From a virus: a stretch of 64,000 bases of DNA. Position numbers and translations under genes: made by a program. The stretch is taken from the IMG/VR virus record IMGVR_UViG_3300045988_077137. The stretch is one strand, 5' to 3'. Shown here piece by piece: positions 21,297 through 51,523 of this stretch (its first letter is position 1; each line of letters begins with the position of its first letter). The notes under the pieces are model-generated. The model had not been told where the DNA came from and made no database searches. It saw only the letters and a list, made by a program, of their open reading frames with translations.

Positions 21297-21617
21297 ATGA
21301 AATTAGATGAAAACATTTTGAAGACCTGCCAAGGACTTGTAATGAACTGTCATTGTAAGATTTTAATCCTTGATGTATTAGGTGAACATCGTGTATTCCT
21401 TGTGAATGACGTACACCTTAAAACTCGTGAATGTCGTTATAACGAAGTTCGTGATGCGCAGGACATCACTACTCTCGTATTGAATGTCGGTCACAATTTT
21501 GCTAATGGCATGACCGAGCAGACCTTACTTGAACGCACTCAATCTATCCACAAGGAGGATTTCAAGTTTGGAACGGACAATTATATGTGGATTACGCGTA
21601 TGGATTTAAATCGTTGA
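21297..21617 (+). CDS. hypothetical protein, paralog of 19932..20270
   Basis: 106 aa. By eye it is well over half identical to the minus-strand gene just outside the cassette, but it has diverged at the nucleotide level. Confidence 0.6.
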   Translation: MKLDENILKTCQGLVMNCHCKILILDVLGEHRVFLVNDVHLKTRECRYNEVRDAQDITTLVLNVGHNFANGMTEQTLLERTQSIHKEDFKFGTDNYMWITRMDLNR

Positions 21618-21621
21618 GAAT

Positions 21622-21804
21622 ATGAAGCAATCCGATGAAAAGCCAACAGTTGAAAAATGTAAAACAGAACTTGAGGAAATTGCAAAAGAAATGGGGCTTC
21701 CTATTGAAGACCCCAAAGTACCAGTTGAATGGTGTAAACGTGGTGGGTGGTATGATGATGAAGTCGCAGAAAAATTGATTACCCCTTTGTATTTCAGGAA
21801 ATAA
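21622..21804 (+). CDS. hypothetical small acidic protein
   Basis: 60-aa ORF 4 nt after the preceding stop. Confidence 0.35.
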   Translation: MKQSDEKPTVEKCKTELEEIAKEMGLPIEDPKVPVEWCKRGGWYDDEVAEKLITPLYFRK

Positions 21805-22011
21805 TCAATATTCTATTTGAATAGAATTATCTTCATATTTAATCATATCATCATCAGTGCCAAGTTCAACATCTGAAAGATTTAAAACAACTCGCTTTTT
21901 ATCTTTCTGGGTAGCATCTATTAATTCGCAATTGACATCTGTTACCTTGTAAATTTTAGATGGGCATACTTTTAATTTGACGTATGTCCCTCCCGTAATT
22001 TGTTCTTTCAT
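21805..22011 (-). CDS. hypothetical protein
   Basis: The first ATG (MKEQITGG) is at 22011. It is convergent with the 60-aa ORF and their stops abut. Confidence 0.35.
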   Translation of the reverse strand: MKEQITGGTYVKLKVCPSKIYKVTDVNCELIDATQKDKKRVVLNLSDVELGTDDDMIKYEDNSIQIEY

Positions 22012-22053
22012 AATTATTTCCCTATTAGTCTTGTTCAAATATAGGGAATTTAC

Positions 22054-22302
22054 TACTTTTGCGCAAGCCTTTCGAGGTTAAACATTGTTGGAAAATAAAG
22101 GAAAGTGCCTTAATACTCGAAGAATCGCCAATTCAATAAAAGTACAAACGAGGCACAGAGGGCAACCTATATCAAGTGGGCTGCTCATCTGTGTGTTTGT
22201 ACAAGCGTTTGGCGATGCTTTCGAGTTTACACAGGTGGCAGTCCACTTTCTTTATTATATAACGTTCTCATAGACTGTCGGGAACTCGAAAAATTCGCCA
22301 TT
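22054..22302 (+). promoter_or_regulatory. TActTTTG promoter element plus a ~240-nt structured leader upstream of the lipoprotein gene
   Basis: The -7 box is at 22054..22061. Nested stems: 22116..22130 pairs with 22210..22225, and 22142..22158 pairs with 22189..22202. A second copy of the 5' arm (22285..22300) ends 2 nt before the ATG. Confidence 0.35.
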
Positions 22303-22827
22303 ATGAAAAAGTATTTCGTTCTACCAATTATTGTAGCAGTTTTAGCTATCGGATTGCAATCGTGTTCTAAGCCAAATCCTGAATCTATGTCTGAAATCGT
22401 ACTTGAAACTATTAGTATCTATAAATCCGGTGGAGATTACTTAGGTTACATTGAAAGCCTTGAAAAGAAATATAAATGTGTTGATTATAAGGATTCCTTA
22501 AAGTTGGAAATTTCTTCAGACACAAAGATTGTTCGTAAAATGTTCACATCAGAAGATGAAAAGGTTAAAGTTCGGTTGACAGGAACAGAAGACAGTGATT
22601 GGCGTGACTTGGAGTTCATAATTTATCCTCTTACTGAAACATCTGAAAGTTATTCTGTGGACAAATGCTACAAGGAAATCAAGGAAAAGGCTAAGGAACA
22701 CAATGTCTTCTATTATTCCCTGTATCTTTATAGATACGAAGTGCCTAATTCTGTTGGAAAAATCAAGGTAGATGATGTGGAAACTCCTTTTTTCAAAGGA
22801 CTTAGATTTTATAACAAAAAACAATAG
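22303..22827 (+). CDS. lipoprotein
   Basis: Signal peptide MKKYFVLPIIVAVLAIGLQSC with a lipobox Cys followed by SKPNPES. Confidence 0.7.
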   Translation: MKKYFVLPIIVAVLAIGLQSCSKPNPESMSEIVLETISIYKSGGDYLGYIESLEKKYKCVDYKDSLKLEISSDTKIVRKMFTSEDEKVKVRLTGTEDSDWRDLEFIIYPLTETSESYSVDKCYKEIKEKAKEHNVFYYSLYLYRYEVPNSVGKIKVDDVETPFFKGLRFYNKKQ

Positions 22828-22834
22828 TACCGTT

Positions 22835-23206
22835 TTATTGCTTTAGCATCCTGTTAAAACTATTCAAATCAGCCGGACTAAGTTCCGGCTTTTTTATTAG
22901 TCCGTTTTTAGAGTCTATAAGCAATGGCAATGCCTCTGCGAGTAACATCTTAAAGCCTCGTTTGGTTTTCGCTTTAGACGATTTGTAGAGGTGATTTATT
23001 ACGGTAAACTTGTAACCTTTACCGAGCCAGTCCCAAGTGAATACATATTGTTGTGGAATGTTCTCAATAGACAGGTCATTGAAATATGTATCAATAATAA
23101 GTTGTACACCCTCTGTCCTTATGGCTACTGCTTCATCGAACATTTCAATATAGGGGACAATGATTGTTCCAAGTTTAAATTCTGTTGATTCTTTTCTTCT
23201 TTTCAT
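22835..23206 (-). CDS. hypothetical protein immediately downstream of the transposase
   Basis: 123-aa ORF that starts 2 nt after the transposase stop. No family recognised. Confidence 0.4.
   Translation of the reverse strand: MKRRKESTEFKLGTIIVPYIEMFDEAVAIRTEGVQLIIDTYFNDLSIENIPQQYVFTWDWLGKGYKFTVINHLYKSSKAKTKRGFKMLLAEALPLLIDSKNGLIKKPELSPADLNSFNRMLKQ
22871..22896 (+). terminator. rho-independent terminator after the lipoprotein gene
   Basis: Stem agccgga/tccggct with loop ctaagt, then tttttt. It lies within the 3' end of the minus-strand ORF 22835..23206. Confidence 0.6.
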
Positions 23207-34100: not shown

Positions 34101-34681
34101 ACCTTAACAGTGAAGCGGAAATCCCGAGGCTGGTCATACACCACACACTCCATACCAATCACGCTCTTGATTCCGTTCTTTTGACATTCCGCTTGAAACT
34201 TCAATGCTCCGGCAAGTGAATTCTTTTCACAGATACCCAACGTCTTCACCCCAAGGAACTTTGCCTTCTTACACCAGTCGGCATACGTTCCCGTCCCAGA
34301 CATCATTTCATACTGACCATGAACTCCCAAGAATACAGGGGTCTCAATCTCCTGTTTCGCCTGACCGATATATTTCAACCGTGTGAGTTTCACGTCATTC
34401 TCTTTACCTTTGGCGAGCATATAGTACACTCCCCCAAAACTGAATGCGTAGAAGTCACACGATGTTTCGACGGATTCCTCTCCTGAGCCTTTACGCTTCG
34501 GGTCGGCAGGAATACCTACAAAGTTGAACCCGTCATCAAACAGCGCACCGTCATACGCTGGTTGATATAATTCAAAGGTCTTCCCTCCTATCTCGACCAC
34601 ATAGTCAGAAATAGGAGCGAAGTCCATTAAATTCTTCTCAAGATATTCTTTGAATTTATCCATTGATTTTCTGCTTAACAA
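31181..34681 (-). CDS. dnaE: DnaE-type DNA polymerase III alpha subunit (PHP plus polymerase core)
   Basis: PHP region LGVHGQYEMMSG...LGICEKNSLAG, catalytic LPDIDCDY, and FNRSHAAAYA. 1166 aa. Confidence 0.9.
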   Translation of the reverse strand: MLSRKSMDKFKEYLEKNLMDFAPISDYVVEIGGKTFELYQPAYDGALFDDGFNFVGIPADPKRKGSGEESVETSCDFYAFSFGGVYYMLAKGKENDVKLTRLKYIGQAKQEIETPVFLGVHGQYEMMSGTGTYADWCKKAKFLGVKTLGICEKNSLAGALKFQAECQKNGIKSVIGMECVVYDQPRDFRFTVKVYARNDKGWRDLLTINKFINCDNPKYIGLEDFNKITTNNDDLIMFLDPKTTDYDKLKDLHIDAVVYQLDPCEYVDDNRDEWYLTNLKKFFKDKNLLPVPSVDAWYLDEEYSCIRPRLHSIGGTTAYESDNQYFKSNDQLFVELAQMFPDTEEGFMDVYSRFMEGLEFLENIAEAITFVIDVKKRHLPHYKMTKEEAKQFETNEDLFWSLIADGLERHPDLIEDWGEEVIMERIDREVGVIKLGEAIDYFLITWDIINWCHRNGIMTGISRGSAGGCLVSYLLGITKLDPMRYDLLFERFLNAGRVKVSLPDIDCDYPGEDRPRVKKYMEERYGWKQVCSVGTYSALQLRAAIKDMARVYGLDFQETNEMMKVFDVKDRKPEDLFKIACAHSRVKNFVVEHSDLINEVMLIMPAPKAQSIHACAMMVFPEEHDMFHWVPIRKNGEEYVTEWEGGEMDAAGFLKEDVLGVKQFDKFQDMVRLVKEHEGVDLDIFSVPLDDPEVYRYFKNGWNEDNFHFGSSGLTGYCRQMKPDNIEDLIAAISLYRPGAMENNFHNEYVSRKEGQKEVEYFTGTDKILNNTYGVFAYQEQIMQLCRELGGLSLVEADDVRKAMVKKKYEALQQYKERFIPYYRDNYNVTQEYSEKVWDAIDKASTYLFNRSHAAAYAITGYISQWIKVHYPIEYWSVAFKYAMESDYSRYIAEINKTGVCTVRPVDINISDTDVVINFKEKALYWSITGVKQVAEKAATQIIKERTENGQYWSLDDFITRHKWKGSAVNSRIIRNLILAGAFDSLEGVKKPQERIDLLVHFLGTTKGNVKEDDPVLVGADFHANDAWWWALLQKKVSGLAFFDYQKIYDRFAGEFPDAYEYATLEECHDTEVKPNNGYVVLAGFIAEMEIKKTRKGDTMCRLILEANYEFIEIVIFQQEYEQLEPLLSCGRANLILINGILSYDNRKEVNTLRACFESNIVTLTL

Positions 34682-35303
34682 GTTCCGTTATATCGTCACC
34701 ATCTTTACACCCTAACGACAGGAAGTATTGAGCAAACTTCTCACTGACATGGTCATTCAATTCGTAGGAATCCGAATGATAATCACAGAAGTAAATCTTC
34801 ACTTCTTTACCTGTCGCCTCAGCAACCTTAAAGATAGCCTCAGCCTCACAGTCGAAACGCAATGAACCAAATACGATATCGCATATTTCAGCATCTTCTT
34901 CAGACATCTTCGCCCAGCTGTTCGTAACAGCGTTTGCCGTCCAACGTGCCCATACGTCTTCACCAGCCAATGACTTGAGATATTCGCCTGTGCGCTGTAA
35001 CAGTTCACGACCCTCAACTCGTACCGAGTCAAGAATATTAGGAGAATCATCCTGTGAGAAAAACGGTAACAGGATATCGCTGCTCAACTGTTTCCACTTC
35101 GCATACGCTGTACCCGTACAGTCAATCTTCTTTGACTCCCCTGTAAAGATGTTCATCAACGTCTGGCGAATTCCTTCACTGAAATCCCCCATAATCAGCG
35201 GACGCTCCATACAGGCAGCATCCACCATGAGTGCTTCCGCTTGGTAAGATTTACCGGAGCCAATAACTCCTACCAAGCCATATATCTTTCCTCTAAGGCT
35301 CAT
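34656..35303 (-). CDS. dNMP kinase-like P-loop protein
   Basis: Walker A GVIGSGKS. GRELLQRTGEYLKSLAGEDVWARW and IVFGSLRFDCEAEAI resemble T4 gp1 deoxynucleoside monophosphate kinase motifs. Confidence 0.55.
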   Translation of the reverse strand: MSLRGKIYGLVGVIGSGKSYQAEALMVDAACMERPLIMGDFSEGIRQTLMNIFTGESKKIDCTGTAYAKWKQLSSDILLPFFSQDDSPNILDSVRVEGRELLQRTGEYLKSLAGEDVWARWTANAVTNSWAKMSEEDAEICDIVFGSLRFDCEAEAIFKVAEATGKEVKIYFCDYHSDSYELNDHVSEKFAQYFLSLGCKDGDDITELVKQKING

Positions 35304-35832
35304 ATTGATTCATGAATTTTTGAACACTTTTGAAGAGTTTCCAGCCGTCCGTGTACTTCTCCAACAGTTGTTCGCAGTTTATGATACAAGTCAATAACTT
35401 CTTGGACGTGTTTCCCAGAGCCTGTTCGTTCTTACAGAATATCCATAAGTCCAAATAATCACAGGTCTTGAAAAGACGGTACTGGAGGTCAGTCATTGTC
35501 TTCTTAATTTCTTCATCGGAATACGGCAACAGGTTCACGTCGCCATGACAGATTTCGTATTCAATGATATCCCATGCCGCAGCCGTGTTCTCATTGAATT
35601 TCTTTACGCACGCATTGAGGTCGCCTGTAACACTTTCCACGTAGTCGTGGAGTAACACCTTGTCAAACACGTTGATGTCGTAGGCAACGTCCTCTTCTGA
35701 GGCAAACCAACGAAATAACATGCCTACCACCAACCCATGCTCCAAGAGGTTGTACCCCCTGTGATGGGGGGTATTAGGCAACCTCTGAATGTCTTTCATC
35801 CCTAACAGGATGTCAATCTTTTTGAAATTCAT
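35293..35832 (-). CDS. HD-domain phosphohydrolase (YfbR-like 5'-deoxynucleotidase candidate)
   Basis: H..H...HD...D pattern: HHRGYNLLEH ... LLHDYVESVTGD. Confidence 0.7.
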   Translation of the reverse strand: MNFKKIDILLGMKDIQRLPNTPHHRGYNLLEHGLVVGMLFRWFASEEDVAYDINVFDKVLLHDYVESVTGDLNACVKKFNENTAAAWDIIEYEICHGDVNLLPYSDEEIKKTMTDLQYRLFKTCDYLDLWIFCKNEQALGNTSKKLLTCIINCEQLLEKYTDGWKLFKSVQKFMNQYEP

Positions 35833-35864
35833 AACTAAATCGTCTTTATTTTAGTGAATAATTC

Positions 35865-36983
35865 TTATCCGATGAACAGTTCGTTCAGTAACGGGTTCCG
35901 GAACTCTACCAACTGTTTTGTCCAATAACGGAAGATAACCTTTGCCCAGTCAGAGAACATCTCATCTTCAAACTTTTCAATATCCGCACGCAATAACTCG
36001 AAGTCCTGTTCTGTACGGTTTTCACTGTTACGACAGTTTTCTTCGAACTGGCTCAACTGAGCGATAAGCGCATCGAACTCCTCTAAAGTTTTAAACGTCG
36101 TCTTATAGGAAAAGTTTACTCCGGACGGATACGAATTTGGGTCTCTTTTAGCGATTTCTTCAGCCAACGGAATGAAGTCCTTATAGACATGAAGATTGTC
36201 TGCCTTGTGGTAATATTTCCCGACAGGCACGCCCACTATCGCTGCGACGTACTCCTGCATCAATGTAAAGTTGAACACGTTCACCGCACTGAACCCCCAG
36301 ATAAGGTCATTCGAACGGATATCCACGTAACAGTTCATCTTTCCATTCACTATCATGAAGTGGATTGAACGGGTACACGGTGTATCCTTTGTGAGGAGCA
36401 ATGGAGCCTTTTCCCCGTCCTCTTCATTCTGATTGAAGTTGTCAGAGATAGGGTCGTGAATTGTGATAACCGCTTCACGGGTATCGATGTCCTGCTTGAA
36501 CTTTTCAATGACGAACCGTAATTGGTCAGTCACGTTCTGGTACAGTCCGGGAGCCTTCAATTTTGAATAACGACCGTTTTCGTCTGCTTTACCGTTCTTA
36601 TACTGTCGCGGAAGTAACTTTCCGGACAATGTTACCATCGAGTCAAAATTGTCCCCGTAACGACGTATTCTGGGTCCATATCCCGCTCTCATGAACTTTC
36701 CGTCGTCTGAGAAGTTTACAAGGTTCTTCACATAGGAAGCAGGCATCTCAAGACTGTTATCTCCACGAGCCAGCCACAGGGACTCAATCCACCCCAATGT
36801 TTTGTTCCATTTACGCTCCGGAACACGAACATAGCGGTCGGTCGGATTAGTTATCTCAATGAGGACGGCTCCAGGGAACTCACGACATTCGAACCCTCTT
36901 CGGGTAACGTCAATCCCTTTATCCATCAACTCCTTACAAAGTAGCACCAGCGCACTACTCAAATTTTCTGCTTGAAAATACAT
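35865..36983 (-). CDS. thymidylate-synthase-family enzyme, a candidate dUMP hydroxymethylase
   Basis: Catalytic-Cys region TPCTRSIHF (compare ThyA PCH...QF) and RSNDLIWGFSAVNVFNF (compare ThyA RSCDVFLGLPFNIASY). At 372 aa it is about 100 aa longer than canonical ThyA. The hydroxymethylase call rests on gene context. Confidence 0.65.
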   Translation of the reverse strand: MYFQAENLSSALVLLCKELMDKGIDVTRRGFECREFPGAVLIEITNPTDRYVRVPERKWNKTLGWIESLWLARGDNSLEMPASYVKNLVNFSDDGKFMRAGYGPRIRRYGDNFDSMVTLSGKLLPRQYKNGKADENGRYSKLKAPGLYQNVTDQLRFVIEKFKQDIDTREAVITIHDPISDNFNQNEEDGEKAPLLLTKDTPCTRSIHFMIVNGKMNCYVDIRSNDLIWGFSAVNVFNFTLMQEYVAAIVGVPVGKYYHKADNLHVYKDFIPLAEEIAKRDPNSYPSGVNFSYKTTFKTLEEFDALIAQLSQFEENCRNSENRTEQDFELLRADIEKFEDEMFSDWAKVIFRYWTKQLVEFRNPLLNELFIG

Positions 36984-36997
36984 AAGTCTTTCTTGAT

Positions 36998-38035
36998 TTA
37001 ATCGATTAATAATTCTCCTGGCTTGGGCAACTTAGCATTCCACTTCGGGGGGAAGACGAACTCAATCTTCTTCGGACTCTTTTCGTAGGTGTGCTTGATA
37101 CGTTCATTTCTACCTTTGTTGAAAGACGCTCCTAATCCCTTTGCAAACTTCGATGTTTCACAGAAACAGTTCTGAAGATTTGTAAGAGTAGGAACAGGCT
37201 CCCACGGTAACGGGTTCCACTTCATACCTGTCTTTTCGCAGAAGTCACCCATCAGCCTTTCAAAGTTGTCGTGAACCCACTTGATAGTGCCCACATAGTC
37301 ATAACGCTTTCCGGACGCTCCGTCAAATGTCCAGCCGATACCTTTCAACGACCCTGGACCAGTGATGACAAAATCGTTTTCCGAAAAGTTGAACAGGGGT
37401 GAATAATTCAGGTCAATGCAATATTGCTGAGCCGTGAAGTCCCCGTATATTTTCATATTCCTGAAAACCCAATACAAGTCCTCAAAGGTCTTCGCCTCTA
37501 AGAAGTCATACAGGTGTCCGTTCTGAAAGATTTCGTCCTCAAAGATACGGAAGTGAGCACGATGTTTGCTCATGCCTGTTATGTGCTTATATTGGGGATA
37601 CTGATAAAAGAAGCAATTCACGATGTATGCATTACCGTATATCGTGTCGCCACTGTCAACTACCTTATCCAAGAACTTCGCTATGTTTTCCAAGCCTGTT
37701 TCGTAGGTGATATCCCCGAACTCCTTTTCCAACAAATCCCACGTCTCGTTCTTATTGAAATGCTTGAAAAGCAATATGCGAAAGAACATATCCTCTGGCT
37801 CGTATTCTTTACCATTGTAAATCACACGGCTCAACAGGTATTGACTCACACGGTCAAGGCAACGATACACAGAAGTAAATTTGTAATTTTGCAAAATCGG
37901 GTCGGCTGTCCAAGGCTGTGGGTCTCCGTTGTATTTCTTCCAAAAAATGTTCATCCGCTCACATATCCAATATAAATAATGAGGGAAATTTTCGTTTGGC
38001 TTCGGGACAAATATTTCTTTATTTTTCATATACAA
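36998..38035 (-). CDS. alpha-glutamyl/putrescinyl thymine pyrophosphorylase-like (aGPT-Pplase) DNA hypermodification protein
   Basis: The N-terminal block YLYWICERMNIFWKKYNGDPQPWTADPILQNYKFTSVYRCLDRVSQYL matches my recollection of the aGPT-Pplase signature (PWT.DPIL..Y.FTN.YR..DR.TQ). Needs a profile search. Confidence 0.5.
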   Translation of the reverse strand: MYMKNKEIFVPKPNENFPHYLYWICERMNIFWKKYNGDPQPWTADPILQNYKFTSVYRCLDRVSQYLLSRVIYNGKEYEPEDMFFRILLFKHFNKNETWDLLEKEFGDITYETGLENIAKFLDKVVDSGDTIYGNAYIVNCFFYQYPQYKHITGMSKHRAHFRIFEDEIFQNGHLYDFLEAKTFEDLYWVFRNMKIYGDFTAQQYCIDLNYSPLFNFSENDFVITGPGSLKGIGWTFDGASGKRYDYVGTIKWVHDNFERLMGDFCEKTGMKWNPLPWEPVPTLTNLQNCFCETSKFAKGLGASFNKGRNERIKHTYEKSPKKIEFVFPPKWNAKLPKPGELLID

Positions 38036-38636
38036 ACTTTCTTAAATACATACCATTGCGCTCACCTGTTACTGCCCGACCAATCTTTCGCTTATGCTCT
38101 TCAGACAACGGCTTTCCTCTACGACTTAATCCCATCTTCTTCTGAAGTTCAGGATTTCTCAACGCATTTCGTGATGCTTCACATTGCTTTTGAACAAAAG
38201 ATTCATCTTGACGCAAATTCTTCATCAACACAGACTTTCTTTTCCGAAATTCAGGTGTGCATCTTTTCTTTGCTGCCTCTGACATTTTTCGTTTTGATTC
38301 CTCAGAAAATACCTTTCCAAGTTGTCCTTCACCTCCCAATGTCATATTATAGCCATTTCTAAAAGTGTTGAACCGCTTTATAAGCCTCATTTCAACGTAG
38401 TCAAGTTTCTTCTTCAGAATCTCTTTCGTAGGAGCGGAAACAGTCATGACCTCTTCGACTGTAAAGTTCTCCTCGCCATACTTTCGAATGGCTCGGTGGA
38501 ACTTGTATCTACTTCCTGAAAATGATTCATTGACATGCCGATTCCAACGTTCTTCAATCAAACGAATTGTCTGCCCAAAGTACAGTTTCCCAGTGGGCAG
38601 ACAGGTGACGCAATATATGTAACCTTTATGAATCAT
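38019..38636 (-). CDS. GIY-YIG homing endonuclease
   Basis: GYIYCVTCLPTGKLYFGQT...R...H with NUMOD3-like repeats. It is inserted between the aGPT-Pplase-like gene and the P-loop kinase gene. Confidence 0.85.
   Translation of the reverse strand: MIHKGYIYCVTCLPTGKLYFGQTIRLIEERWNRHVNESFSGSRYKFHRAIRKYGEENFTVEEVMTVSAPTKEILKKKLDYVEMRLIKRFNTFRNGYNMTLGGEGQLGKVFSEESKRKMSEAAKKRCTPEFRKRKSVLMKNLRQDESFVQKQCEASRNALRNPELQKKMGLSRRGKPLSEEHKRKIGRAVTGERNGMYLRKFVYEK
38365..38434. repeat. 70-nt block identical to 41631..41700
   Basis: gtgttgaaccgctttataagcctcatttcaacgtagtcaagtttcttcttcagaatctctttcgtaggag is present in both homing endonuclease genes. The flanks are similar but carry mismatches. Confidence 0.95.
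38569..38620. repeat. 52-nt block identical to 50259..50310 and near-identical to 51459..51508
   Basis: gtctgcccaaagtacagtttcccagtgggcagacaggtgacgcaatatatgt encodes the YCVTCLPTGKLYFGQT core. Confidence 0.95.
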
Positions 38637-39370
38637 TTATCCTTTTGAAATTCAACAAACGAGTTCTTTTCAATGTAGTCCGACGCTTCACAGAAAGCCA
38701 CGAACTCTTCACATAGTTCTGACAGCCCAAAGAAATTGAAAATATGAACACCCAAGTCCCAGACCGGAGCGTCATACGGTTGGTCGTGAAGAACCACACA
38801 ACCGCCAGCCTCATTTACCTCTTTTCCCTCTCTTTGAGCCTTTTCGAAGTCGTGCATAAAGGTACGGTGCTTCCGCCACATGCAATCCCCCTTAGGAGGC
38901 TCGCCAGACCTGTATGCTATACGAGCACAATATTCATCCCATTGGTCGTCACGGTAATCATACCTGACATGGAGAATGTTCGTAAACTCACTCTCTCCGC
39001 ATAAATCCAAGGGACGCAATCGCCATGATACAGTTGTTCCTGCACCATCAATCAAAACTCCATGCCCTGCCTTAGACGTTTCCTTCAAGAAGTAGGATAA
39101 ACCCTCAGCCTTGCACAGTCGCGACGTCATACTGTCGTAACCTTGCCAGCGTCGGATACCGCCATTCTCATAGAATTTCCCAACGAAAACCATATTGAAG
39201 TCCTCGGAGTAAACCCCGACTTCCTTTTCCTTTCCGTCAAGTGTCTTAAACTTGTATGGGCGGAGTTTCATACCTAATGATTCGAGGAACTCGAGGAAGA
39301 GGTAAACCCTTGTAGATTTACCGCTCCCCGAGATGCCTTTAACCAATACTATGGATTCCCCGTCAACCAT
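38633..39370 (-). CDS. P-loop kinase, a candidate 5-hydroxymethyl-dU DNA kinase
   Basis: Walker A GISGSGKST. The 245-aa size and the synteny with the aGPT-Pplase-like and TS-family genes support the call. Function is inferred from context. Confidence 0.45.
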   Translation of the reverse strand: MVDGESIVLVKGISGSGKSTRVYLFLEFLESLGMKLRPYKFKTLDGKEKEVGVYSEDFNMVFVGKFYENGGIRRWQGYDSMTSRLCKAEGLSYFLKETSKAGHGVLIDGAGTTVSWRLRPLDLCGESEFTNILHVRYDYRDDQWDEYCARIAYRSGEPPKGDCMWRKHRTFMHDFEKAQREGKEVNEAGGCVVLHDQPYDAPVWDLGVHIFNFFGLSELCEEFVAFCEASDYIEKNSFVEFQKDK

Positions 39371-40093
39371 TTACTTCTTCTTTGGAGTTTTCTTTGCGGG
39401 TGCAGGTTTGGCGTCCTCAGCCAGTTCCAACGCTGTTACACGTTTCTTGATAGGCTTGTCGTCACCGAACTTGACCATACACTTTTCTTTTCCGTCTCCG
39501 GACTTGTACAGGCGAGTGATTTCACCAACAGCGTCCTCGCCTTTCAGGATAACTTTCGAACCTACTTTCAGTCCCGGAATTTCTTCCGATTCTTCGAGGT
39601 TCTGACGTTTTGTTTCACGAGGAGTCTTGTCGGCTTTCGCTGACTTCTTTTCCTTCATAGACTTGTCTGATTTAGACGGAGTCTTGCGGTTTTTCTGACG
39701 TTCCTCGTACTCTGCCTCAGCCTTTGCCAAGCGTTCTTCCTCTTCCGGTGCCAGTTGTTCTTCTGACTGATAGGTAGAGTTGCGTTTGTTCTGACGTTTC
39801 ATTGCTGCTTCAGGTGAACCATCCTCAGGGTCTGGGTCGTCATCAGCGGTTTCTTCTTTCTTCGGAGCAGCCTTTTTCGCAGGAACCTTTTTGTCTTCCT
39901 TTTTAGGAGCGGACTTCTTGGCGGGAGCAGCCTTTGCAGGTTGTTCTTCGGCTTCGCCACCTAACTTGTCAAGGAACTCTTGAGCCACCTTAACTTCCAA
40001 TTCACTTGAGTTTTCATTCTCAATGATTTCGTTCAACTGTTCAGCAGTGAACTTTCTGTACTTCATACGAAGTGCCAACGCATTGTTTGCCAT
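39371..40093 (-). CDS. Lys/Ala/Pro-rich histone-H1-like protein with a C-terminal KOW/SH3-like segment
   Basis: PAKAAPAKKSAPKKEDKKVPAKKAAPKKEE low-complexity region. The C-terminus is KVGSKVILKGEDAVGEITRLYKSGDGKEKCMVKFGD. Confidence 0.45.
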   Translation of the reverse strand: MANNALALRMKYRKFTAEQLNEIIENENSSELEVKVAQEFLDKLGGEAEEQPAKAAPAKKSAPKKEDKKVPAKKAAPKKEETADDDPDPEDGSPEAAMKRQNKRNSTYQSEEQLAPEEEERLAKAEAEYEERQKNRKTPSKSDKSMKEKKSAKADKTPRETKRQNLEESEEIPGLKVGSKVILKGEDAVGEITRLYKSGDGKEKCMVKFGDDKPIKKRVTALELAEDAKPAPAKKTPKKK

Positions 40094-40156
40094 AATCGTT
40101 TTTACTTTATTAGTTAAAATTTTATTTTCAGTGATGTTTTATCACTTATCTCGGTA

Positions 40157-40164
40157 CAAATATA
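40157..40164 (-). promoter_or_regulatory. possible -7 element TAtaTTTG
   Basis: TAnnTTTG match on the minus strand 64 nt upstream of the start at 40093. There is no clean -33. Confidence 0.3.
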
Positions 40165-40211
40165 ATGTAAATATCTCGAATAAGTTTTGATTTTCTCGCG
40201 AAAAATCGAAA

Positions 40212-40661
40212 TTATTTTTTGCCGGAATGACCAAAACCTCCCGCACCTCGTTCTGTATCAGTCATTTCACTGACATCAGAAACTTCGATAATTTCCTCGA
40301 CTTTCGCATACGGAGCGAAGACAATCTGAGCAACTCTGTCGCCATTTTCGATTGTCTGTGGTTCTGTTGACAGGTTAATCAATGGAACACCTACTTCCCC
40401 ACGATAGTCAGCGTCAATGGTTCCCGGAGCATTGATTACGGTCAGACCCTGTTTAACAGCGCAACCGCTTCGAGGTCTCACCTGACCCTCGTACCCCTGT
40501 TCGATTTCCATGTACAAACCAGTAGGAATGATTTTACGCTCCATCGGAGCCAACGTGATTGAACCCTCGGGAAGATAGGCACGCAAGTCCATACCCGAAC
40601 TGTCTGGAGTTTTGTACTCCGGCAGAGCATTTGTGCTCTTGTTTACGATTTTCAATTTCAT
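40212..40661 (-). CDS. dut: trimeric dUTPase
   Basis: All five dUTPase motifs are present: SSGMDLRA, RPRSG, GTIDADYRGE, DRVAQIVF and ERGAGGFGHSG. Confidence 0.92.
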   Translation of the reverse strand: MKLKIVNKSTNALPEYKTPDSSGMDLRAYLPEGSITLAPMERKIIPTGLYMEIEQGYEGQVRPRSGCAVKQGLTVINAPGTIDADYRGEVGVPLINLSTEPQTIENGDRVAQIVFAPYAKVEEIIEVSDVSEMTDTERGAGGFGHSGKK

Positions 40662-41191: not shown

Positions 41192-41902
41192 TTATTTCCA
41201 TAAATATCCTCGATAAGGCAACCCATCCTGGAGTCTTTTCCTTAAAGTATGCCCATTCAATTTCAGTTCTCGTTTGATATCAATTATAGTATTCCATTCT
41301 TTAATAAGAATTCCATCCTTCGAATATTGAAATACTTTTCTACAATTATTTTGATATCCAGGTTTTCCCAAATTCGCTTCTGATATTTTTCTTTTGGTTT
41401 CTTCTGAATGATGTTTTCCATATAATGGATGATTCTTTCCAGAAAGTTTATGATTTCCGAAATTTGAATTCAACTCCCCAACTCGTAATTTAGCAGCATC
41501 GCTCATTCTTTTCAAAGTCTCATCCGAAAATTTTCTACCTTTCAAGGCTTTGCTGATTTTAGCAAGTGATTCTTCAGAAAGATTCACTAAACCATCCCCA
41601 CCATCTGTCGAATTATACCCGTCAATCTTAGTGTTGAACCGCTTTATAAGCCTCATTTCAACGTAGTCAAGTTTCTTCTTCAGAATCTCTTTCGTAGGAG
41701 AGGAAACTGTCAGAACTTCTTCGACCAGGAAGTTCTCCTCACCATACTTTCGTATGGCTCGGTGAAACTTATGGTCGGAGCCTCTTTGAGTAGAAAGAAT
41801 ATGCCGTCTCCAACGACTTCTTATAGAGATAATCGTTTGTCCGAAGTACAGTTTACCCGTCTTCAAACACGTCACACAATATATGAAGCCTTTTTGAATC
41901 AT
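41192..41902 (-). CDS. GIY-YIG homing endonuclease
   Basis: GFIYCVTCLKTGKLYFGQT...R...H with NUMOD3-like repeats (GKHHSEETKRKISEAN). Confidence 0.85.
   Translation of the reverse strand: MIQKGFIYCVTCLKTGKLYFGQTIISIRSRWRRHILSTQRGSDHKFHRAIRKYGEENFLVEEVLTVSSPTKEILKKKLDYVEMRLIKRFNTKIDGYNSTDGGDGLVNLSEESLAKISKALKGRKFSDETLKRMSDAAKLRVGELNSNFGNHKLSGKNHPLYGKHHSEETKRKISEANLGKPGYQNNCRKVFQYSKDGILIKEWNTIIDIKRELKLNGHTLRKRLQDGLPYRGYLWK
41631..41700. repeat. 70-nt block identical to 38365..38434
   Basis: Compared base by base. Confidence 0.95.
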
Positions 41903-44595: not shown

Positions 44596-46695
44596 TTATA
44601 CTGCGTCAATTTTTATCATTACTGTACTCTCTCGCAACTTGTTAATCGCCATGAAAGAGGAGGACACGGTATCATCGTGCCCACTGATACTCTCAAGAGT
44701 TCCCTTATCGCTGCGAAACGCAACTGAGTTGAACTCCCCAAACATCTGGTCAATCTTAGCAGCCGTGTCAGGATGATACGGACACTTGATTACACCTCTC
44801 TCAAATAACGCTGCAAGTGATGCCCACCCTGTTCTCAGGTCTTTCTTATTCCCGGAGGTCGTCGTGAACGGTGTAATATTCTTGATACCCATCTGGACGC
44901 ACATATCCGCCAATATACTTTGAAAGCCGTTGTTTTCTACAACTATCTCGTTTGGCTTAAACACCCTGTTCAGGAGGTCAATCTTCTGTATCTGTTCATT
45001 ATGCGACAATCCCTTTTCCCGGAATATATAGAGGAGATAATAATTCCCCTGGACATCCTTCCCCCAAACTGTATAACAAGTATAGTCGGCTCCCACATTT
45101 CCCGAAACAGCAAAGTCACAACCCATGACCACCCTCTGTAACTTGATAGGGAACGACTCTATGTTATCTACGAGCCTGATGTTTTCCATCCCGATTGTAC
45201 TCCTCTTTAATATCTCCCAAGGGAAGATTGTACTATCGTCGGAAATAGGTACGACCAAATACTCACGAGAGAATACGAGCGTCCCCAGAGACGCTTTTTC
45301 CTCCATAAGTTTTGCCCACGTAAAACGGTCAGGAGCCAACAGGCGACCGTCCGGGAATATGGCTGGGTACTCAAAGACACGGAACTTTGGGTCTTTCTTT
45401 AATTCGGCATACAAGTCCTCTTGCTGATACGGTGTACCATCAACGATGTTATACCCATACGGCTCAACGATAGGAGTGATAGCACCTTTAAACAGGTCTC
45501 TCAACTTCTCACGCTGTTCAAGCGAATAGATACTACTCTCGTCTGGTAAGTCATCGCTGACCGCTGCCCCCACGTGAAGACCACGAATAAACCCGTCCTT
45601 TCCACGGAGGTGAAGTTTCGTTCCGTTCTCGCATTCAATACTTGTCGCTGCCAGTGAAGCCTTTCCAGTAGGGTTCAGTTTCGCTGCCAAAGCCTCATTC
45701 ACACGGATTTCCTCAACCACCTTGTCGATGTGCTGTTTACCCAATTTTTCCGTGTTCGTAATAATACAGGTTTCCTGGCGATTTTTATTGTCAGGAATAT
45801 CAGGTCGCATAAACGTCGGACGTCGGTAACTGTATAATCTCCACAGCGGAAACGCCATACAGAACTCGTAGGAATTGTGAACGACTGTACCATCCTCCAA
45901 CTGAAACAGATGGTCGCCATCGCACATAAACCCGTAATAAGACTCTTCCCCGATAGGTTCAACCGTTATATTCCCACGCTCAAATACAGGCTTGTCGTAA
46001 GAGAACACCCTGTATCCTTGGAACCGTCTTTGCTTCTTAACGGGATATTTCAGGAATTGTCCCATTTCTATTTCGACATACTTCTTCCGCTTCGTGTCAA
46101 AGAGGCACATCGTGTGCGCTCGGTTCACGGCATACGGCATACCATTCTCCTGCTCAACCCTGAACATCTGAGCACGACCGATATGTCGTGTCAGAACCTT
46201 TCGGGGAGTGAAGTCTAATCCCATTACTTCCATTCCGGGATAAATATCCTCTATATTCTTCACGGAAAAGTCAGCCATCAGCACCCGTGTGCCTCTCGCA
46301 AAGCATTTACCGTGAGAACGAGCAGCAAGATATGCGCTGTTCGGATAAAGTTGCACCATGTTTCCCCATTCAAGATTTCTCCAACCCTGACGGAAATTAG
46401 GAAGCATAGTTGTCTTGAAATAGTTGTACGACTGAACTTTCAGCGTCTCATCCATTGACTCTTCCAATTGGTCAATGTAGTTGAGCCGTTCAGTTTCAAG
46501 CGTGGTATTTAGGGAAAGAACATTATTCGTCTGAATGAAGATTTCCGATAACAGTGCATCGACGTCACCACCATAGCCACCAACCAATTGATTGATAGCC
46601 ACAGGTGGTAACGACTCAAGCACGTTGAACGCAGTAGAGAACACCGTGTCCAACTGTTTGTACGACAACTTTAAATCTTCATTAAAATGTATCAT
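44596..46695 (-). CDS. terL: terminase large subunit interrupted by a mini-intein
   Basis: The Walker A sequence ARSHGK|...|S is restored after intein removal. The nuclease half carries CDFAVSG...DYTC and DD motifs. 699 aa with the intein, about 555 aa without it. Confidence 0.82.
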   Translation of the reverse strand: MIHFNEDLKLSYKQLDTVFSTAFNVLESLPPVAINQLVGGYGGDVDALLSEIFIQTNNVLSLNTTLETERLNYIDQLEESMDETLKVQSYNYFKTTMLPNFRQGWRNLEWGNMVQLYPNSAYLAARSHGKCFARGTRVLMADFSVKNIEDIYPGMEVMGLDFTPRKVLTRHIGRAQMFRVEQENGMPYAVNRAHTMCLFDTKRKKYVEIEMGQFLKYPVKKQRRFQGYRVFSYDKPVFERGNITVEPIGEESYYGFMCDGDHLFQLEDGTVVHNSYEFCMAFPLWRLYSYRRPTFMRPDIPDNKNRQETCIITNTEKLGKQHIDKVVEEIRVNEALAAKLNPTGKASLAATSIECENGTKLHLRGKDGFIRGLHVGAAVSDDLPDESSIYSLEQREKLRDLFKGAITPIVEPYGYNIVDGTPYQQEDLYAELKKDPKFRVFEYPAIFPDGRLLAPDRFTWAKLMEEKASLGTLVFSREYLVVPISDDSTIFPWEILKRSTIGMENIRLVDNIESFPIKLQRVVMGCDFAVSGNVGADYTCYTVWGKDVQGNYYLLYIFREKGLSHNEQIQKIDLLNRVFKPNEIVVENNGFQSILADMCVQMGIKNITPFTTTSGNKKDLRTGWASLAALFERGVIKCPYHPDTAAKIDQMFGEFNSVAFRSDKGTLESISGHDDTVSSSFMAINKLRESTVMIKIDAV
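45874..46305 (-). mobile_element. 144-aa mini-intein (Hint domain, no endonuclease domain) in the terminase P-loop
   Basis: It starts CFARGTRVLMADFSVKNIEDI (block A) and ends DGTVVHN, followed by the +1 Ser. It is inserted between the GK and S of the Walker A motif. Confidence 0.8.
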
Positions 46696-47383: not shown

Positions 47384-48088
47384 CTATTTTAATTTGTAAC
47401 TAAATTCAAATCCATCAACACTTATAATCTTCCCCAAACAACAGCGATTTATTCTGCCAATTCCAATAGAAGTTTCTAAAGCAGCCTGAGTTAAACTATC
47501 AAAAGTTTTCAGCAACTTTCCATCTAAATATTGGTAAACTGCTTTCCTTCCAACTCCAGTCCTACCTTTGAGAGAATCAGAAATATGTTTCCTCTGTTCA
47601 AGAGTTCTCTTCTTTCCCCGAAGTTTTTCTGCTCTATTTTCTATTTCTATTGTGGACTGTTTTCTTCCTCTTAATGGGGAAATACGCTTTTCTATTTCTT
47701 CCTCAGATTGTTTCTTGCCTCTATTTCCTGAGCCCATTTTATACAGAATTTCTTCAGTAAACTCATACCCACTTCGACCACCCGAAGTTGAATTATAACC
47801 ATTCTTATAGGAATCGTAAAAAGAAATCCAATATTTTTCTCTTTCATCCAACCATTTCACGCATTCAACTAAATTTTGAAATGGTTTCTTTTCAAGGCAT
47901 TCAACAGAAAAAGAATCTTTACCGTATTTTCGAATTGCTCGATAAAACTTACAGTCCTTTATTCGTTTCTTTGTTTTAAATGCCGTCCGGATATGCCGAT
48001 TAAATCTTCGATGATATTCATGAGTAACCTGACCAATATAAACTTTATTAGTCTCAGAGCAAGTCACCATATAAATATATCCAGTCAT
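47384..48088 (-). CDS. GIY-YIG homing endonuclease
   Basis: GYIYMVTCSETNKVYIGQV...R...H, NUMOD3-like repeats and a C-terminal IENR-like HTH segment. Confidence 0.85.
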   Translation of the reverse strand: MTGYIYMVTCSETNKVYIGQVTHEYHRRFNRHIRTAFKTKKRIKDCKFYRAIRKYGKDSFSVECLEKKPFQNLVECVKWLDEREKYWISFYDSYKNGYNSTSGGRSGYEFTEEILYKMGSGNRGKKQSEEEIEKRISPLRGRKQSTIEIENRAEKLRGKKRTLEQRKHISDSLKGRTGVGRKAVYQYLDGKLLKTFDSLTQAALETSIGIGRINRCCLGKIISVDGFEFSYKLK

Positions 48089-48925: not shown

Positions 48926-49619
48926 AGTCTGTCATACGTGATACTTCCCTTATTGTAACGTGAGAACCCTGTAATTGCTGTGTCTCCGTAGCACTCTTCT
49001 TTTCAGCACTTTCCGAGATTTGTTCATACAGGCTTTTCCCGCTGGCGTCCTTTGTTCCAAACAACATCTTACAGTCCTTTTCGAACGGACAAGTATAACA
49101 GATTTCATCCTTCGGATTGTAGGGACTACTCCCGAACTTCGCTTCACAGAAATTCGGACCCGATATTCTTGACATTCTCAACCGTTCCCTGCGAAACACG
49201 TCATCCGATACCGCTTCATAAGTGTTTGTCTTGACAGGGTTCACCAACTTCTTCTCACGTGCCCAATCCCTTGCATGCCACTTTGCTTCATCAGAATATT
49301 CATTCCAACGTCTCCATGCTTCTTTCCCCATGAACCAACTCGGCATCGGTTTGCGTTCATGGTCTTGACCCACAAAGACATAGAATTGAAATAGGAGGAA
49401 GTTCCAAATGAAGTCCGCTCCCGCAGTCGGGGGAAGCGTTTCCATGAAAGAAACAACCGCAGAACGATGTAAAGGTTTATTCATCTTGAGCGTTCTGGGC
49501 TGTTCCTTCATTCTCATTTGCAGATACTCGTATATCCGCAAAATTATCTTCAAAGTTTCATTATAAGAATATAGCATAATCATCTTTAATTTTGTTCCTT
49601 CCAAGTAAATCCCTTGCAA
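48909..49619 (-). CDS. hypothetical protein (start uncertain)
   Basis: 236-aa ORF whose first 11 codons overlap the upstream homing endonuclease gene. Internal Met candidates exist. Confidence 0.4.
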   Translation of the reverse strand: MQGIYLEGTKLKMIMLYSYNETLKIILRIYEYLQMRMKEQPRTLKMNKPLHRSAVVSFMETLPPTAGADFIWNFLLFQFYVFVGQDHERKPMPSWFMGKEAWRRWNEYSDEAKWHARDWAREKKLVNPVKTNTYEAVSDDVFRRERLRMSRISGPNFCEAKFGSSPYNPKDEICYTCPFEKDCKMLFGTKDASGKSLYEQISESAEKKSATETQQLQGSHVTIREVSRMTDYGEDD

Positions 49620-50326
49620 GTTTTTATAATTCCATTAACACAATTCCTTATCGCTCCTCGAGAAACGCCAATATAATCGGCTGCCTCTGTCAATGAACTA
49701 AATTCTTTGATTTTTCTTCCATTCAAATCACACATAAATAACGTCCTCTTAATTAGGTGGGAATCGCTCATTTTCTTACGAACTTCAACATTCCATTTCC
49801 TACCCCAATTTGGATGGTTTTCTTTTCTAAAATCAGCATGATTTTCAGAAAGTTTTCTTCGATGTTTTTCTGACAGTTTCTTTCCTTTGTGTTTGGAACT
49901 AATCTTCTTTTTCGTTTCAGAATTCAAATGTTTTCCAAAACAATAATGATTCGCACCTGAATTTTTCTCAGATATTTTTCTTTTGGTTTCATTTGAAAGT
50001 TGTACCCCCAAAGAACCCTCACCGCCATCAGTTTCGTTGTACCCATTGTGTCGGGTGTCAAACTTCTGAATGAAGTGTATTTCAAGGAAGTCAAGTTTGG
50101 CTTTAAGAGCCTGTTTCGTAGGAGCCTCGACCCACATGACCTCTTCGATACGGAAATTGTCAGAGCCGTACTTTCGTATGGCACGGTGGAACTTACATTG
50201 CGGATTTCTAAGTGCTTTTGAAATATGCTTTCCAAATCGTCTTTCAATCGACATCACCGTCTGCCCAAAGTACAGTTTCCCAGTGGGCAGACAGGTGACG
50301 CAATATATGTGACCAATTATTCCCAT
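49586..50326 (-). CDS. GIY-YIG homing endonuclease
   Basis: GHIYCVTCLPTGKLYFGQT...R...H with NUMOD3-like repeats. Confidence 0.85.
   Translation of the reverse strand: MGIIGHIYCVTCLPTGKLYFGQTVMSIERRFGKHISKALRNPQCKFHRAIRKYGSDNFRIEEVMWVEAPTKQALKAKLDFLEIHFIQKFDTRHNGYNETDGGEGSLGVQLSNETKRKISEKNSGANHYCFGKHLNSETKKKISSKHKGKKLSEKHRRKLSENHADFRKENHPNWGRKWNVEVRKKMSDSHLIKRTLFMCDLNGRKIKEFSSLTEAADYIGVSRGAIRNCVNGIIKTCKGFTWKEQN
50245..50310. repeat. homing endonuclease 5'-end block shared with 51445..51508 and 38569..38620
   Basis: 53 nt (50245..50297) are identical to 51445..51497, and 52 nt (50259..50310) are identical to 38569..38620. Confidence 0.95.
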
Positions 50327-50890: not shown

Positions 50891-51523
50891 TTATAATTTT
50901 AATTTTCTAATTTTCCAAGCCTCCCTCATCTTCCTTTTAGATTCTTCAGAATGTTTTCTCGAAGCAAATGGATTGTTTGAGCCTTTTAAGTTCGGTTTCA
51001 TCTTCCTTCCTGTTTCGTAGGCTTCCCTCACTCCTTGAGAAATTTTTCTGCGATGTTCCTGAGACAGTGGCTTCCCTTTGTACGGAGTAGGATGGTTCTT
51101 ACAAGATTCCCCAATCTTTCTTTTCCATTCATCAGAAAGATTTCCACGCTTTTTACCTTTCTTTGCTCGTGAAATATTCAAACGATGGGTGGATGAAAGA
51201 CTCCCTGAAGAAAACCCTTCACCTCCATCAGTCATATTAAATCCATCGTATCGAGTATTGAATCTTTTTATAAAGAATCTTTCAAGAAAATCTAATTTTG
51301 AATTCAGAACCTGTCTATCGTCAGCCTCGACCCACATGACCTCTTCGACTGTGAAGTTTTCAACTCCGTATTTTCGAATTGCTCTATGTAGTTTATATTG
51401 ACATCCCGATTGAGCATATTTTATATGATGTTTCCACCTCTTCTCAATCGACATCACCGTCTGCCCAAAGTACAGTTTCCCAGTGGGCAGACAGGTTATG
51501 CAATATATTCTACCATTAAACAT
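50891..51523 (-). CDS. GIY-YIG homing endonuclease
   Basis: GRIYCITCLPTGKLYFGQT...R...H with NUMOD3-like repeats. Confidence 0.85.
   Translation of the reverse strand: MFNGRIYCITCLPTGKLYFGQTVMSIEKRWKHHIKYAQSGCQYKLHRAIRKYGVENFTVEEVMWVEADDRQVLNSKLDFLERFFIKRFNTRYDGFNMTDGGEGFSSGSLSSTHRLNISRAKKGKKRGNLSDEWKRKIGESCKNHPTPYKGKPLSQEHRRKISQGVREAYETGRKMKPNLKGSNNPFASRKHSEESKRKMREAWKIRKLKL
51445..51508. repeat. homing endonuclease 5'-end block shared with 50245..50310
   Basis: Compared base by base. It diverges after acaggt. Confidence 0.95.

Follow-up and report, generated by a model that had tools for sequence, protein, structure and literature searches.

A candidate minimal 5-hydroxymethyluracil pathway with a single clade-1 pyrophosphorylase in an abundant human-gut phage

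The IMG/VR record IMGVR_UViG_3300045988_077137 holds a 64,000-nucleotide stretch of viral DNA (hereafter the window, always at its full length), which appears to come from an uncultured and very abundant human-gut phage of Bacteroidota with a genome of ~110 kb. Between positions 34656 and 40661 lies a gene cluster that an original prediction had read as a pathway replacing thymidine with 5-hydroxymethyldeoxyuridine (5-hmdU) and modifying it after replication, a reading that is supported by the family assignments reported here. We regard it as likely that the cluster is a working module for replacement and modification based on 5-hydroxymethyluracil (hmU). The more specific proposition, that it constitutes a functional and minimal hmU pathway, in which a clade-1 alpha-glutamyl/putrescinyl thymine pyrophosphorylase (aGPT-Pplase; the clade-1 protein is termed Pplase1 below) replaces a phosphate as the last step, seems to us reasonably probable.

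Genes of the array and the predicted activities of their products

A scan of open reading frames (ORFs) recovered all six genes of the original prediction exactly where it had placed them, on the minus strand and in one tight array (Table 1). Gene families were assigned by profile searches against Pfam, PHROG and NCBIfam, besides sequence and profile searches of the PDB.

Table 1. Genes of the array and its borders, in order of transcription (positions in the window)
Feature	Position	Strand	Family evidence and remarks
dUTPase, 149 aa, trimeric type	40661->40212	minus	PF00692 E 2e-27; NCBIfam dut E 6e-52
Lys/Glu/Ala-rich 240-aa protein	40093->39371	minus	no family match; omitted from the original prediction
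Predicted 5-hmdU DNA kinase, HMUD2 type, 245 aa	39370->38633	minus	PF18747 E 2e-24; Walker A GISGSGKST
Free-standing GIY-YIG/NUMOD3 homing endonuclease	38636->38019	minus	PF01541 + PF07460; phrog_314 E 1.5e-33
aGPT-Pplase clade 1 (Pplase1), 345 aa	38035->36998	minus	PF18723 E 2e-74
Thymidylate-synthase-like enzyme, 372 aa	36983->35865	minus	PF00303 E 5e-17; phrog_5131 E 3e-63
HD protein, YfbR-like, 179 aa	35832->35293	minus	PF12917 E 8e-15; PDB 2PAQ E 2.4e-5
P-loop protein, 215 aa, GVIGSGKSY	35303->34656	minus	phrog_139 E 5.7e-7 only
DnaE	34681->31181	minus	last in transcription order, after the 215-aa P-loop protein

The 372-residue member of the thymidylate synthase (TS) family is most likely a dUMP hydroxymethylase (HMase), judging by several lines of comparison. 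With BLASTP it aligns with SP10 gp188 at 31% identity (E 7e-37), and its best tblastn matches among cultured phages include SP10, SPO1 gp29 and SP8, with ~31-34% identity and E ~1e-29. Among PDB entries it is closer to the CMP hydroxymethylase MilA (E 1e-18) than to ThyA structures (~1e-8), and it scores 66 bits against NCBIfam thymidylate synthase cut-offs of 174 or more. Alignment shows the full TS catalytic set retained, namely C203, R223, S224, D226, N235, H265, Y267, E67 and R169, which align with C146, R166, S167, D169, N177, H207, Y209, E58 and R126 of E. coli ThyA, and the base-specifying residue is Asn (uracil) rather than the Asp of cytosine-specific enzymes. The tryptophan pair of the ThyA segment 'IWDEWA' (W80/W83) shields the exocyclic-methylene intermediate and favours hydride transfer; in the 372-residue enzyme this segment reads 'NFSDDG', a loss common to SPO1 gp29 and SP10 gp188 that fits hydroxymethylation. 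Hence, the assignment to the TS family in the original prediction stands, with hydroxymethylase-like features in the alignment with ThyA and SPO1 gp29, whereas the length that it had called unusual is normal for dUMP hydroxymethylases (SP10 gp188 has 382 residues, SPO1 gp29 383, and relatives 341-407).

The 245-residue kinase matches PF18747 (HMUD2) with 86.7 bits against a cut-off of 25, over profile positions 3-176 of 298, and differs in its C-terminal third. In tblastn searches it shows 25-30% identity over ~90% of its length to the 'guanylate kinase' gene of ViI-like phages. This gene, SFP_0186, encodes a full-length PF18747 domain and lies 4 genes upstream of a PF18724 transferase gene, a spacing that, by gene number, equals that between gp243 and gp247 in ViI. 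Both ViI gp243, which yields 5-phosphomethyldeoxyuridine (5-PmdU) in vitro, and SP10 gp186 have demonstrated 5-hmdU DNA kinase activity (PMC8989533). By analogy, the 245-residue protein would convert 5-hmdU in DNA into 5-PmdU.

Pplase1 matches PF18723 with 251 bits against a cut-off of 25, over profile positions 4-273 of 281, so that the profile searches bear out both the aGPT-Pplase and the 5-hmdU DNA kinase calls of the original prediction. PF18723 bears the Pfam name 'HMUDK_hel' ('5-hmdU DNA kinase, helical domain') because SP10 gp186, listed as a fusion of an N-terminal kinase with a C-terminal aG/PT-PPlase1 (Lee et al. 2018, PMC5889632 Table 3), joins the clade-1 domain to a kinase. A Pfam scan of reference proteins indeed returned PF18748 plus PF18723 for SP10 gp186, PF18723 for the M6-type gp55 homologue MP1412_14, PF18748 for the M6-type kinase, and PF18724 ('amino acid:DNA transferase') for the M6-type gp51 and ViI-type gp247 homologues. 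Pplase1 itself aligns with the C-terminal half of SP10 gp186 at 25% identity (E 5e-20). It has 1695 homologues; among 28 diverse ones, a set that takes in non-phage contexts (L120), N289, C292, E293 and K296 of the motif NCFCETxK are invariant together with ~20 further residues, and the C-E-x-x-K signature recurs in SP10 gp186 and MP1412_14. The AlphaFold2 model is all-helical (pLDDT 92.5); in a Foldseek search of the PDB the top-ranked structure is PaMx11 gp46 (8Z2M), at a non-significant level (E 1.6, TM ~0.3), followed by helix-hairpin-helix (HhH) glycosylases that are likewise non-significant. The conserved residues suggest that Pplase1 is an enzyme built around a Cys-Glu centre, which may or may not share the clade-2 mechanism, and which would process 5-PmdU in DNA.

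The remaining genes of the array point to the nucleotide pool. The dUTPase, which would supply dUMP and keep dUTP out of DNA, is present in all loci of the window's type (type A, see below) that reach far enough upstream, where it forms the 5' boundary of a variable cassette slot. In the HD protein the H...HD...D metal ligands align with those of E. coli YfbR 2PAQ ('eH', 'HD..E..tGDl', '..aD'), making it a candidate YfbR-like 5'-deoxynucleotidase for dTMP depletion. At most Pplase1 loci its gene comes right after that of the HMase or is separated from it by a single small ORF, and a partnership of TS, PPlase1 and 5'-deoxynucleotidase has been noted in pelagiphages (PMC9599517). Both the dUTPase and the HD 5'-deoxynucleotidase had been called correctly from the outset. 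The 215-residue protein is a P-loop protein, as predicted, and every type A locus keeps its gene between those of the HD protein and DnaE. Searches of Pfam, NCBIfam and the PDB gave no match to it, and its sole match, phrog_139, covers part of the profile, which makes the proposed role as a dNMP kinase weak. It is at most a possible (hm)dUMP or dNMP kinase. Outside the window, a 436-residue NUDIX-domain protein (L016:929-2239) weakly resembles diphosphatases that act on pyrimidine dNTPs and is a candidate for the depletion of dTTP, and a 253-residue PNK3P/HAD-type polynucleotide 3'-phosphatase is encoded at L078:13075-13836; each is a possible component of the pathway, on the side of the nucleotide pool or of DNA phosphates.

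To place the array in its genomic context, precomputed Pfam annotation was used for the window and its flanks, and the remaining ~40 kb were tiled from IMG/VR contigs of the same phage, whose ORFs were scanned. Across the window and the rest of this ~110-kb reconstruction, in which many ORFs have no family, we found no pyridoxal phosphate (PLP)-dependent, radical S-adenosylmethionine (radical-SAM), amidotransferase or glycosyltransferase gene, nor any PF18724 or PF18746 protein; the corresponding claim of the original prediction, made for the cluster and its neighbourhood, thus extends to the reconstructed genome. Window proteins gave no match to PF18724, and a six-frame hmmsearch of the whole reconstructed genome with a clade-2 profile returned a best E of 0.82. 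The reconstruction encodes one TS-family protein and one Pplase, the latter being the exactly single copy of clade 1. Compared with the full hypermodification set (Lee et al. 2018, 2021), the HMase and the kinase are therefore present and a transferase of the proven clade is absent. The lack of tailoring enzymes, which the original prediction had stressed as unusual, is in itself not so, as alpha-putrescinyl-T, alpha-dapT and N-alpha-GlyT are each made in one transfer step. All transferases with experimental proof, M6 gp51, ViI gp247, PaMx11 gp46, PhiW-14 gp109 and that of SH-Ab 15599, belong to clade 2 (PMC8989533, PMC11472151, PMC13458397). Since the Pplase of the window is of clade 1, the main gap is the proven transferase itself and not the tailoring enzymes.

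One further protein was considered as a hidden second Pplase. It is a 253-residue DUF2400/TIGR02757 protein (PF09674, E 1e-61), encoded ~13 kb past the left end of the window (L078:10001-10762, equivalent to L047:19505-20266) and conserved across the phage family at 31-82% identity. Its C-terminal 'PCKCD' resembles the clade-1 'NCFCE', and this candidacy was rejected on three grounds: 1) the second Cys is not conserved; 2) the segment 'ACKRLN...PLDTHV' aligns with the HhH-GPD region of endonuclease III, the best PDB match being 1ORN (E 0.012); and 3) hhalign against clade 1 gave 0.5% probability. Given the likeness of its invariant 'ACKRLNMFLRW...IPLDTHV' to the HhH-GPD motif with Lys/Asp in endonuclease III, the protein is probably a glycosylase or lyase acting on DNA, in a phage whose own thymine is likely to be non-canonical.

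Related loci and the variable cassette slot

We mapped 79 IMG/VR loci that encode a relative of Pplase1. In those phage loci that span from DnaB-primase to DnaE, the backbone runs DnaB - primase - p167 - dUTPase - [slot] - Pplase1 - HMase - HD - P-loop - DnaE. The Pplase1-HMase(-HD) block is the constant core, and the slot holds a swappable cassette, of which the following versions were observed. 1) Type A, that of the window, combines the Lys-rich 240-residue protein with the HMUD2 kinase, with or without an endonuclease gene, and accounts for ~41 loci with Pplase1 identities of 55-99%. 2) Type B (8 loci) holds a 349-residue, weakly APH/choline-kinase-like protein, a cytidylyltransferase-like protein and a GT1 glycosyltransferase, and is without HMUD2. 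3) Type C (7 loci) has HMUD2, a 397-residue protein with a weak match to PF18746 (Pplase clade 3; E 0.004) and other family-less proteins. 4) Among the rest, one locus contains HMUD2 with PLP and radical-SAM enzymes, another arrangement is Nmad2-Pplase1-radical-SAM, also found beside a Thoeris island, and several loci have Pplase1+HMase(+HD) pairs with no kinase detected. The retention of the type A cassette in ~41 loci, despite divergence of Pplase1 to 55% identity, argues for selection on a self-sufficient set. Some type A loci had appeared to be kinase-less; this was an artefact of ORF picking, as tblastn finds the kinase in all those checked.

The 240-residue protein is a neighbour of the kinase at all type A loci and is missing from type B and C loci. 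It has no Pfam, PHROG or NCBIfam match and is mostly of low complexity, with a conserved C-terminal domain of ~55 residues that contains the block 'PGxKxG...DGKEKCMVKxGDxKPxKKRVT'. It is probably disordered for the most part, with a DNA-binding or accessory role, and it may be a DNA-binding partner or a charge-neutralising protein tied to the modification.

Type B cassettes come from sister phages (L159-L163, L165, L174, L182, L119) and suggest a different hmU chemistry, possibly glycosylated or nucleotidyl-activated. In two of these (L165, L174) the Pplase1 match lies where no separate ORF is labelled, and Pplase1 may there be fused to the neighbouring glycosyltransferase ORF. The type C loci (L118, L166, L167, L170, L171, L173, L176, L181) also encode family-less proteins of about 344, 251 or 311 residues, which are candidates for new tailoring enzymes. 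A bacterial homologue of Pplase1 (L120) adjoins a Thoeris island.

The homing endonuclease gene that the original prediction had noticed between the kinase and Pplase1 genes proved to be an insert of 611 nt (38027-38637), as delimited by alignment of endonuclease-positive with endonuclease-free alleles. Four otherwise near-identical genomes (L001, L002, L005, L006) lack it, and in these the genes for a 248-residue kinase and a 344-residue Pplase1 have 20 nt in common. Hence, the endonuclease gene occupies a junction and splits no gene, and the idea that kinase and Pplase1 are one gene interrupted by it, by comparison with the SP10 fusion, was rejected. Two other genomes (L003, L004) carry different endonuclease variants at this junction, and across genomes three different GIY-YIG variants with 53-68% nucleotide identity occupy one site. 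Free-standing GIY-YIG/NUMOD3 genes are unusually many in the window (38019-38636, 41192-41902, 47384-48088, 49586-50326 and 50891-51523, all on the minus strand), and their presence or absence varies among near-identical genomes also after DnaE, inside the SNF2 gene region and beside the ribonucleotide reductase (RNR) gene.

A proposed pathway and its last step

The family memberships, the gene order, the conserved cassette and the lack of any other known modification enzyme lead us to infer the following enzymatic steps, those upstream being modelled on hmU phages (PMC8989533): 1) the dUTPase would supply dUMP. 2) The TS-like enzyme would hydroxymethylate dUMP to 5-hmdUMP. 3) The YfbR-like HD nucleotidase would deplete dTMP. 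4) The possible P-loop dNMP kinase, together with host kinases, would raise 5-hmdUMP to hmdUTP. 5) The phage DnaE would build DNA with 5-hmdU in place of T. 6) After replication, the HMUD2-type kinase would phosphorylate the hydroxymethyl group to give 5-PmdU. 7) The clade-1 Pplase, via Cys292-Glu293, would replace the phosphate. With no further tailoring enzyme the product of Pplase1 would be the final base, for which three outcomes are conceivable: an adduct formed in one step, canonical T restored at the level of the DNA polymer, or hmU or phosphorylated hmU (P-hmU) that is left over. For the last step we tentatively put first the direct transfer of an abundant host nucleophile, either an amino acid or a polyamine, on the precedent of SP10; reduction to canonical thymine is a possible but doubtful second, an end without chemistry that leaves hmU or P-hmU in DNA is improbable, and something else takes up the remainder.

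Systems of this kind are known; what is new is the gut-phage setting, the combination of an HMUD2 kinase with clade 1 only and no proven transferase, and the cassette slot. The closest parallel is SP10, with which the array shares the order kinase -> clade-1 Pplase -> HMase, a long HMase and a clade-1 protein as the only Pplase of the genome (PMC5889632). SP10 DNA contains alpha-glutamyl-T in spite of having clade 1 only (PMC5889632 Table 3), which supports a transferase role of Pplase1. The two differ in that the SP10 kinase is of the HMUD1 type (PF18748) and fused to the Pplase, whereas here it is of the HMUD2 type (PF18747) and a separate gene; in that SP10 has a second small kinase, gp218, and an 896-residue gp185 that is listed as radical-SAM (PMC5889632), though it gave no Pfam match in the present scan; and in their hosts, Bacillus there and probably Bacteroidota here. 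M6 and PaMx11, with 5-NedU and 5-AcNmdU, also have a kinase, a gp55-like clade-1 Pplase, (Nmad5) and the HMase in this order beside a DNA polymerase, as seen in the M6-like MP1412 (kinase, gp55-like PF18723, Nmad5, HMase); their kinase is of the HMUD1 type, and unlike the window they carry a clade-2 glycine:DNA transferase with PLP/radical-SAM or FAD/acetyltransferase tailoring enzymes. The recurrence of the kinase -> Pplase1 -> HMase order in two hypermodifying phages that have been studied by experiment, SP10 and the M6-like MP1412, supports the proposed pathway.

Other systems share parts of the set. The 5-NeOmdU pathway of ViI and Ackermannviridae (gp67, gp160, gp226, gp243, gp247) has an HMUD2-type kinase of the gp243 family, a clade-1 Pplase of the gp160 family (~26% identity) and a dUMP hydroxymethylase. 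Its genes are scattered and not contiguous as here, and its final base is made by two enzymes that our phage lacks, gp247 (a clade-2 serine:DNA transferase) and gp226 (a PLP decarboxylase). PhiW-14 (alpha-putrescinyl-T) and SH-Ab 15599 (alpha-dapT) likewise do without tailoring enzymes, using HMase, kinase and then a single transferase that draws on a host metabolite (PMC8989533; PMC13458397); that transferase is of clade 2 (ADDT/DADT), again absent here, and 15599 has a dedicated dTTPase/dUTPase where the array has an HD nucleotidase and a classical dUTPase. Pelagiphages of the HTVC023P type have the trio of Pplase1, TS-like enzyme and YfbR-like HD protein near the DNA polymerase (PMC9599517), but these are podoviruses of SAR11 for which no kinase is mentioned. 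The published metavirome survey used HMUD1-type kinases as queries (M6 gp54, ViI gp67, PhiW-14 gp37), and it may consequently have missed a lineage with HMUD2 only.

Several observations weigh against the proposed pathway, most of them concerning Pplase1. A full-text literature search returned no clade-1 Pplase with demonstrated activity and no later assignment of function to the clade. In M6 the clade-1 gp55 is dispensable, having been omitted from a sufficient reconstitution mix, and in ViI necessity has been shown for the clade-2 gp247 only (PMC8989533). Clade 1 and clade 2 were not linked by phmmer or by profile search of PDB sequences; hhalign, with one clade-2 sequence or a 19-sequence clade-2 profile, gave <1% probability, and the fold match of Pplase1 to 8Z2M is non-significant. 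An apparent motif correspondence 'LC[KE]xxK' between the clades was seen by eye only. Pplase1 is moreover a constant partner of the HMase even in cassettes that have no P-loop kinase (types B and E), which fits a generic role better than that of a group-specific transferase. As for the other enzymes, the kinase aligns with just the N-terminal 60% of the HMUD2 profile, and a hydroxymethylase is not separated from a methylase, that is a true TS, by sequence alone. Lastly, the contigs tiled around the window come from other samples and not from its own assembly, the linking genes having 99-100% protein identity.

The alternative that survives best, though we think it unlikely, is that Pplase1 converts 5-PmdU to T on the polymer; as no transferase of clade 2 or clade 3 would draw off the intermediate, the phage would replicate with hmU and package canonical T, perhaps with hmU kept in certain sequence contexts. 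M6, ViI, SP10 and PhiW-14 turn the hmU that escapes hypermodification into T, by an enzyme that the literature does not name (PMC5889632, PMC8989533), and a clade-1 homologue is carried by M6-like and ViI-like phages and by SP10, with PhiW-14 gp72 and ViI gp160 listed as clade 1 (PMC5889632 Table 3), whereas SPO1, which keeps hmU, is without Pplases (PMC5889632). Thymine-forming chemistry is feasible, as borohydride turns the intermediate of a clade-2 enzyme into thymidine (PMC8989533). Clade 1 also stays constant as the core, in contrast to the variable second Pplase and tailoring genes. Witmer and Wiatr are said to have found in 1985 that SP10 mod mutants lost the formation of T and glutamyl-T together. 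What speaks against thymine regeneration is that the 345-residue protein shows no recognisable domain for binding a reductant or cofactor, that a plain-T end point has no obvious anti-restriction benefit and yet the cassette is strongly conserved, and that SP10 would still require a glutamate transferase, for which no other candidate is known there.

A non-catalytic Pplase1, serving the kinase as a DNA-binding or base-flipping helper, a role that the Pfam name 'kinase helical domain' implies, and leaving 5-PmdU or 5-hmdU as the final base, is very unlikely, and we rank it below the transferase and thymine-forming roles as the least likely function of the protein. The SP10 kinase-Pplase1 fusion and the adjacent genes of the array, with their 20-nt overlap in endonuclease-free alleles, would suit such a helper, as would the in vitro product of full-length SP10 gp186, which was 5-PmdU only (PMC8989533), and the cassette-specific Lys-rich protein could neutralise the extra negative charge. 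However, the invariant Cys-Glu-x-x-Lys and ~20 other invariant residues, polar or aromatic in nature, have the look of an active site, Pplase1 is widespread without any P-loop kinase, and the SP10 kinase domain is active alone (PMC8989533). Furthermore, virion DNAs of SP10, PhiW-14, M6 and ViI are without 5-hmdU, and 5-PmdU is described as an intermediate only (PMC8989533).

Ordinary nucleotide metabolism, with a true thymidylate synthase, P-loop proteins that are nucleotide kinases and unmodified DNA, is scarcely credible: the conserved TS catalytic residues, the plain name of thymidylate synthase in NCBIfam and Pfam and the frequency of TS, dUTPase and dNMP kinase genes in phages would all agree with it, but the 372-residue enzyme falls far under every NCBIfam TS cut-off, groups with the SPO1, SP10 and SP8 hydroxymethylases, shares their loss of the folate-site tryptophan pair, and adjoins members of PF18723 and PF18747, two families whose characterised proteins all come from pathways of 5-hmdU modification.

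The source phage and the implications of the pathway

The phage is extremely common in human-gut assemblies, its contigs reaching 108-110 kb. For three of its proteins the exact sequence is indexed in a public assembly collection: the TS-like enzyme in 4189 blocks, RecA in 5816 and the sigma factor in 8788. It has no close cultured relative, as a megablast search with the cluster gave no match among GenBank phages. DnaE is closest to its counterparts in phages that infect Bacteroidota, the best matches (36-40% identity) coming from phages of Tenacibaculum, Cellulophaga (phiST among them) and Chryseobacterium. Gene content resembles that of 'Gratiaviridae'-like gut Bacteroides phages, with a DnaE/DnaG-type replication module, SF1/SF2 helicases, SbcCD, RecA and a ferritin-like protein, although 'Gratiaviridae' were termed uncommon by Benler 2021 and the present phage is very common.

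Elsewhere in the window, the minus strand encodes a sigma-70 family factor (1334-1945), a GroEL-like chaperonin (Cpn60; 6776-8395), a class II RNR-like protein of 782 residues (9307-11655) and a terminase large subunit of 699 residues (44596-46695), which contains a Hint/intein domain (PF05203) plus Terminase_6C; a ferritin/Dps-like protein lies on the opposite, plus strand (3011-3496). Positions 19800-22900, the sole stretch with several plus-strand ORFs, have a low GC content of 0.375 and a local reversal of GC skew, features that an origin of replication or an inserted module might explain. Scans of the window for tRNAs and Rfam families were both empty. About 1-1.5 kb past the left end of the window, a 180-residue protein with Sequestin/Tad2-like domains (PF21825, PF11195; L014:12841-13383) is a probable anti-Thoeris signal sponge.

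With neither a second Pplase nor tailoring genes, the phage offers the cleanest natural system for assigning the function of clade 1, and the cassette of kinase and clade 1, conserved although sequences diverge by ~45%, makes a natural test system of two enzymes. That these two proteins are the complete post-replicative machinery, and represent either a new class of nucleophile:DNA transferase or an enzyme that turns hmU into T at the level of the polymer, is a serious possibility to which we give somewhat less than even weight. If true, clade 1 would either write an undescribed thymine adduct in a very common gut phage or be the hmU-to-T enzyme that has been missing since about 1980, and the DNA chemistry of an entire family of phages would depend on which cassette occupies the exchangeable slot flanked by the dUTPase and Pplase1 genes. 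A non-canonical thymine would bear on nanopore and enzymatic library methods, on the interpretation of host range, and on restriction and defence evasion in gut Bacteroidota, and the alternative cassettes of sister lineages point to more DNA chemistries in gut phages.

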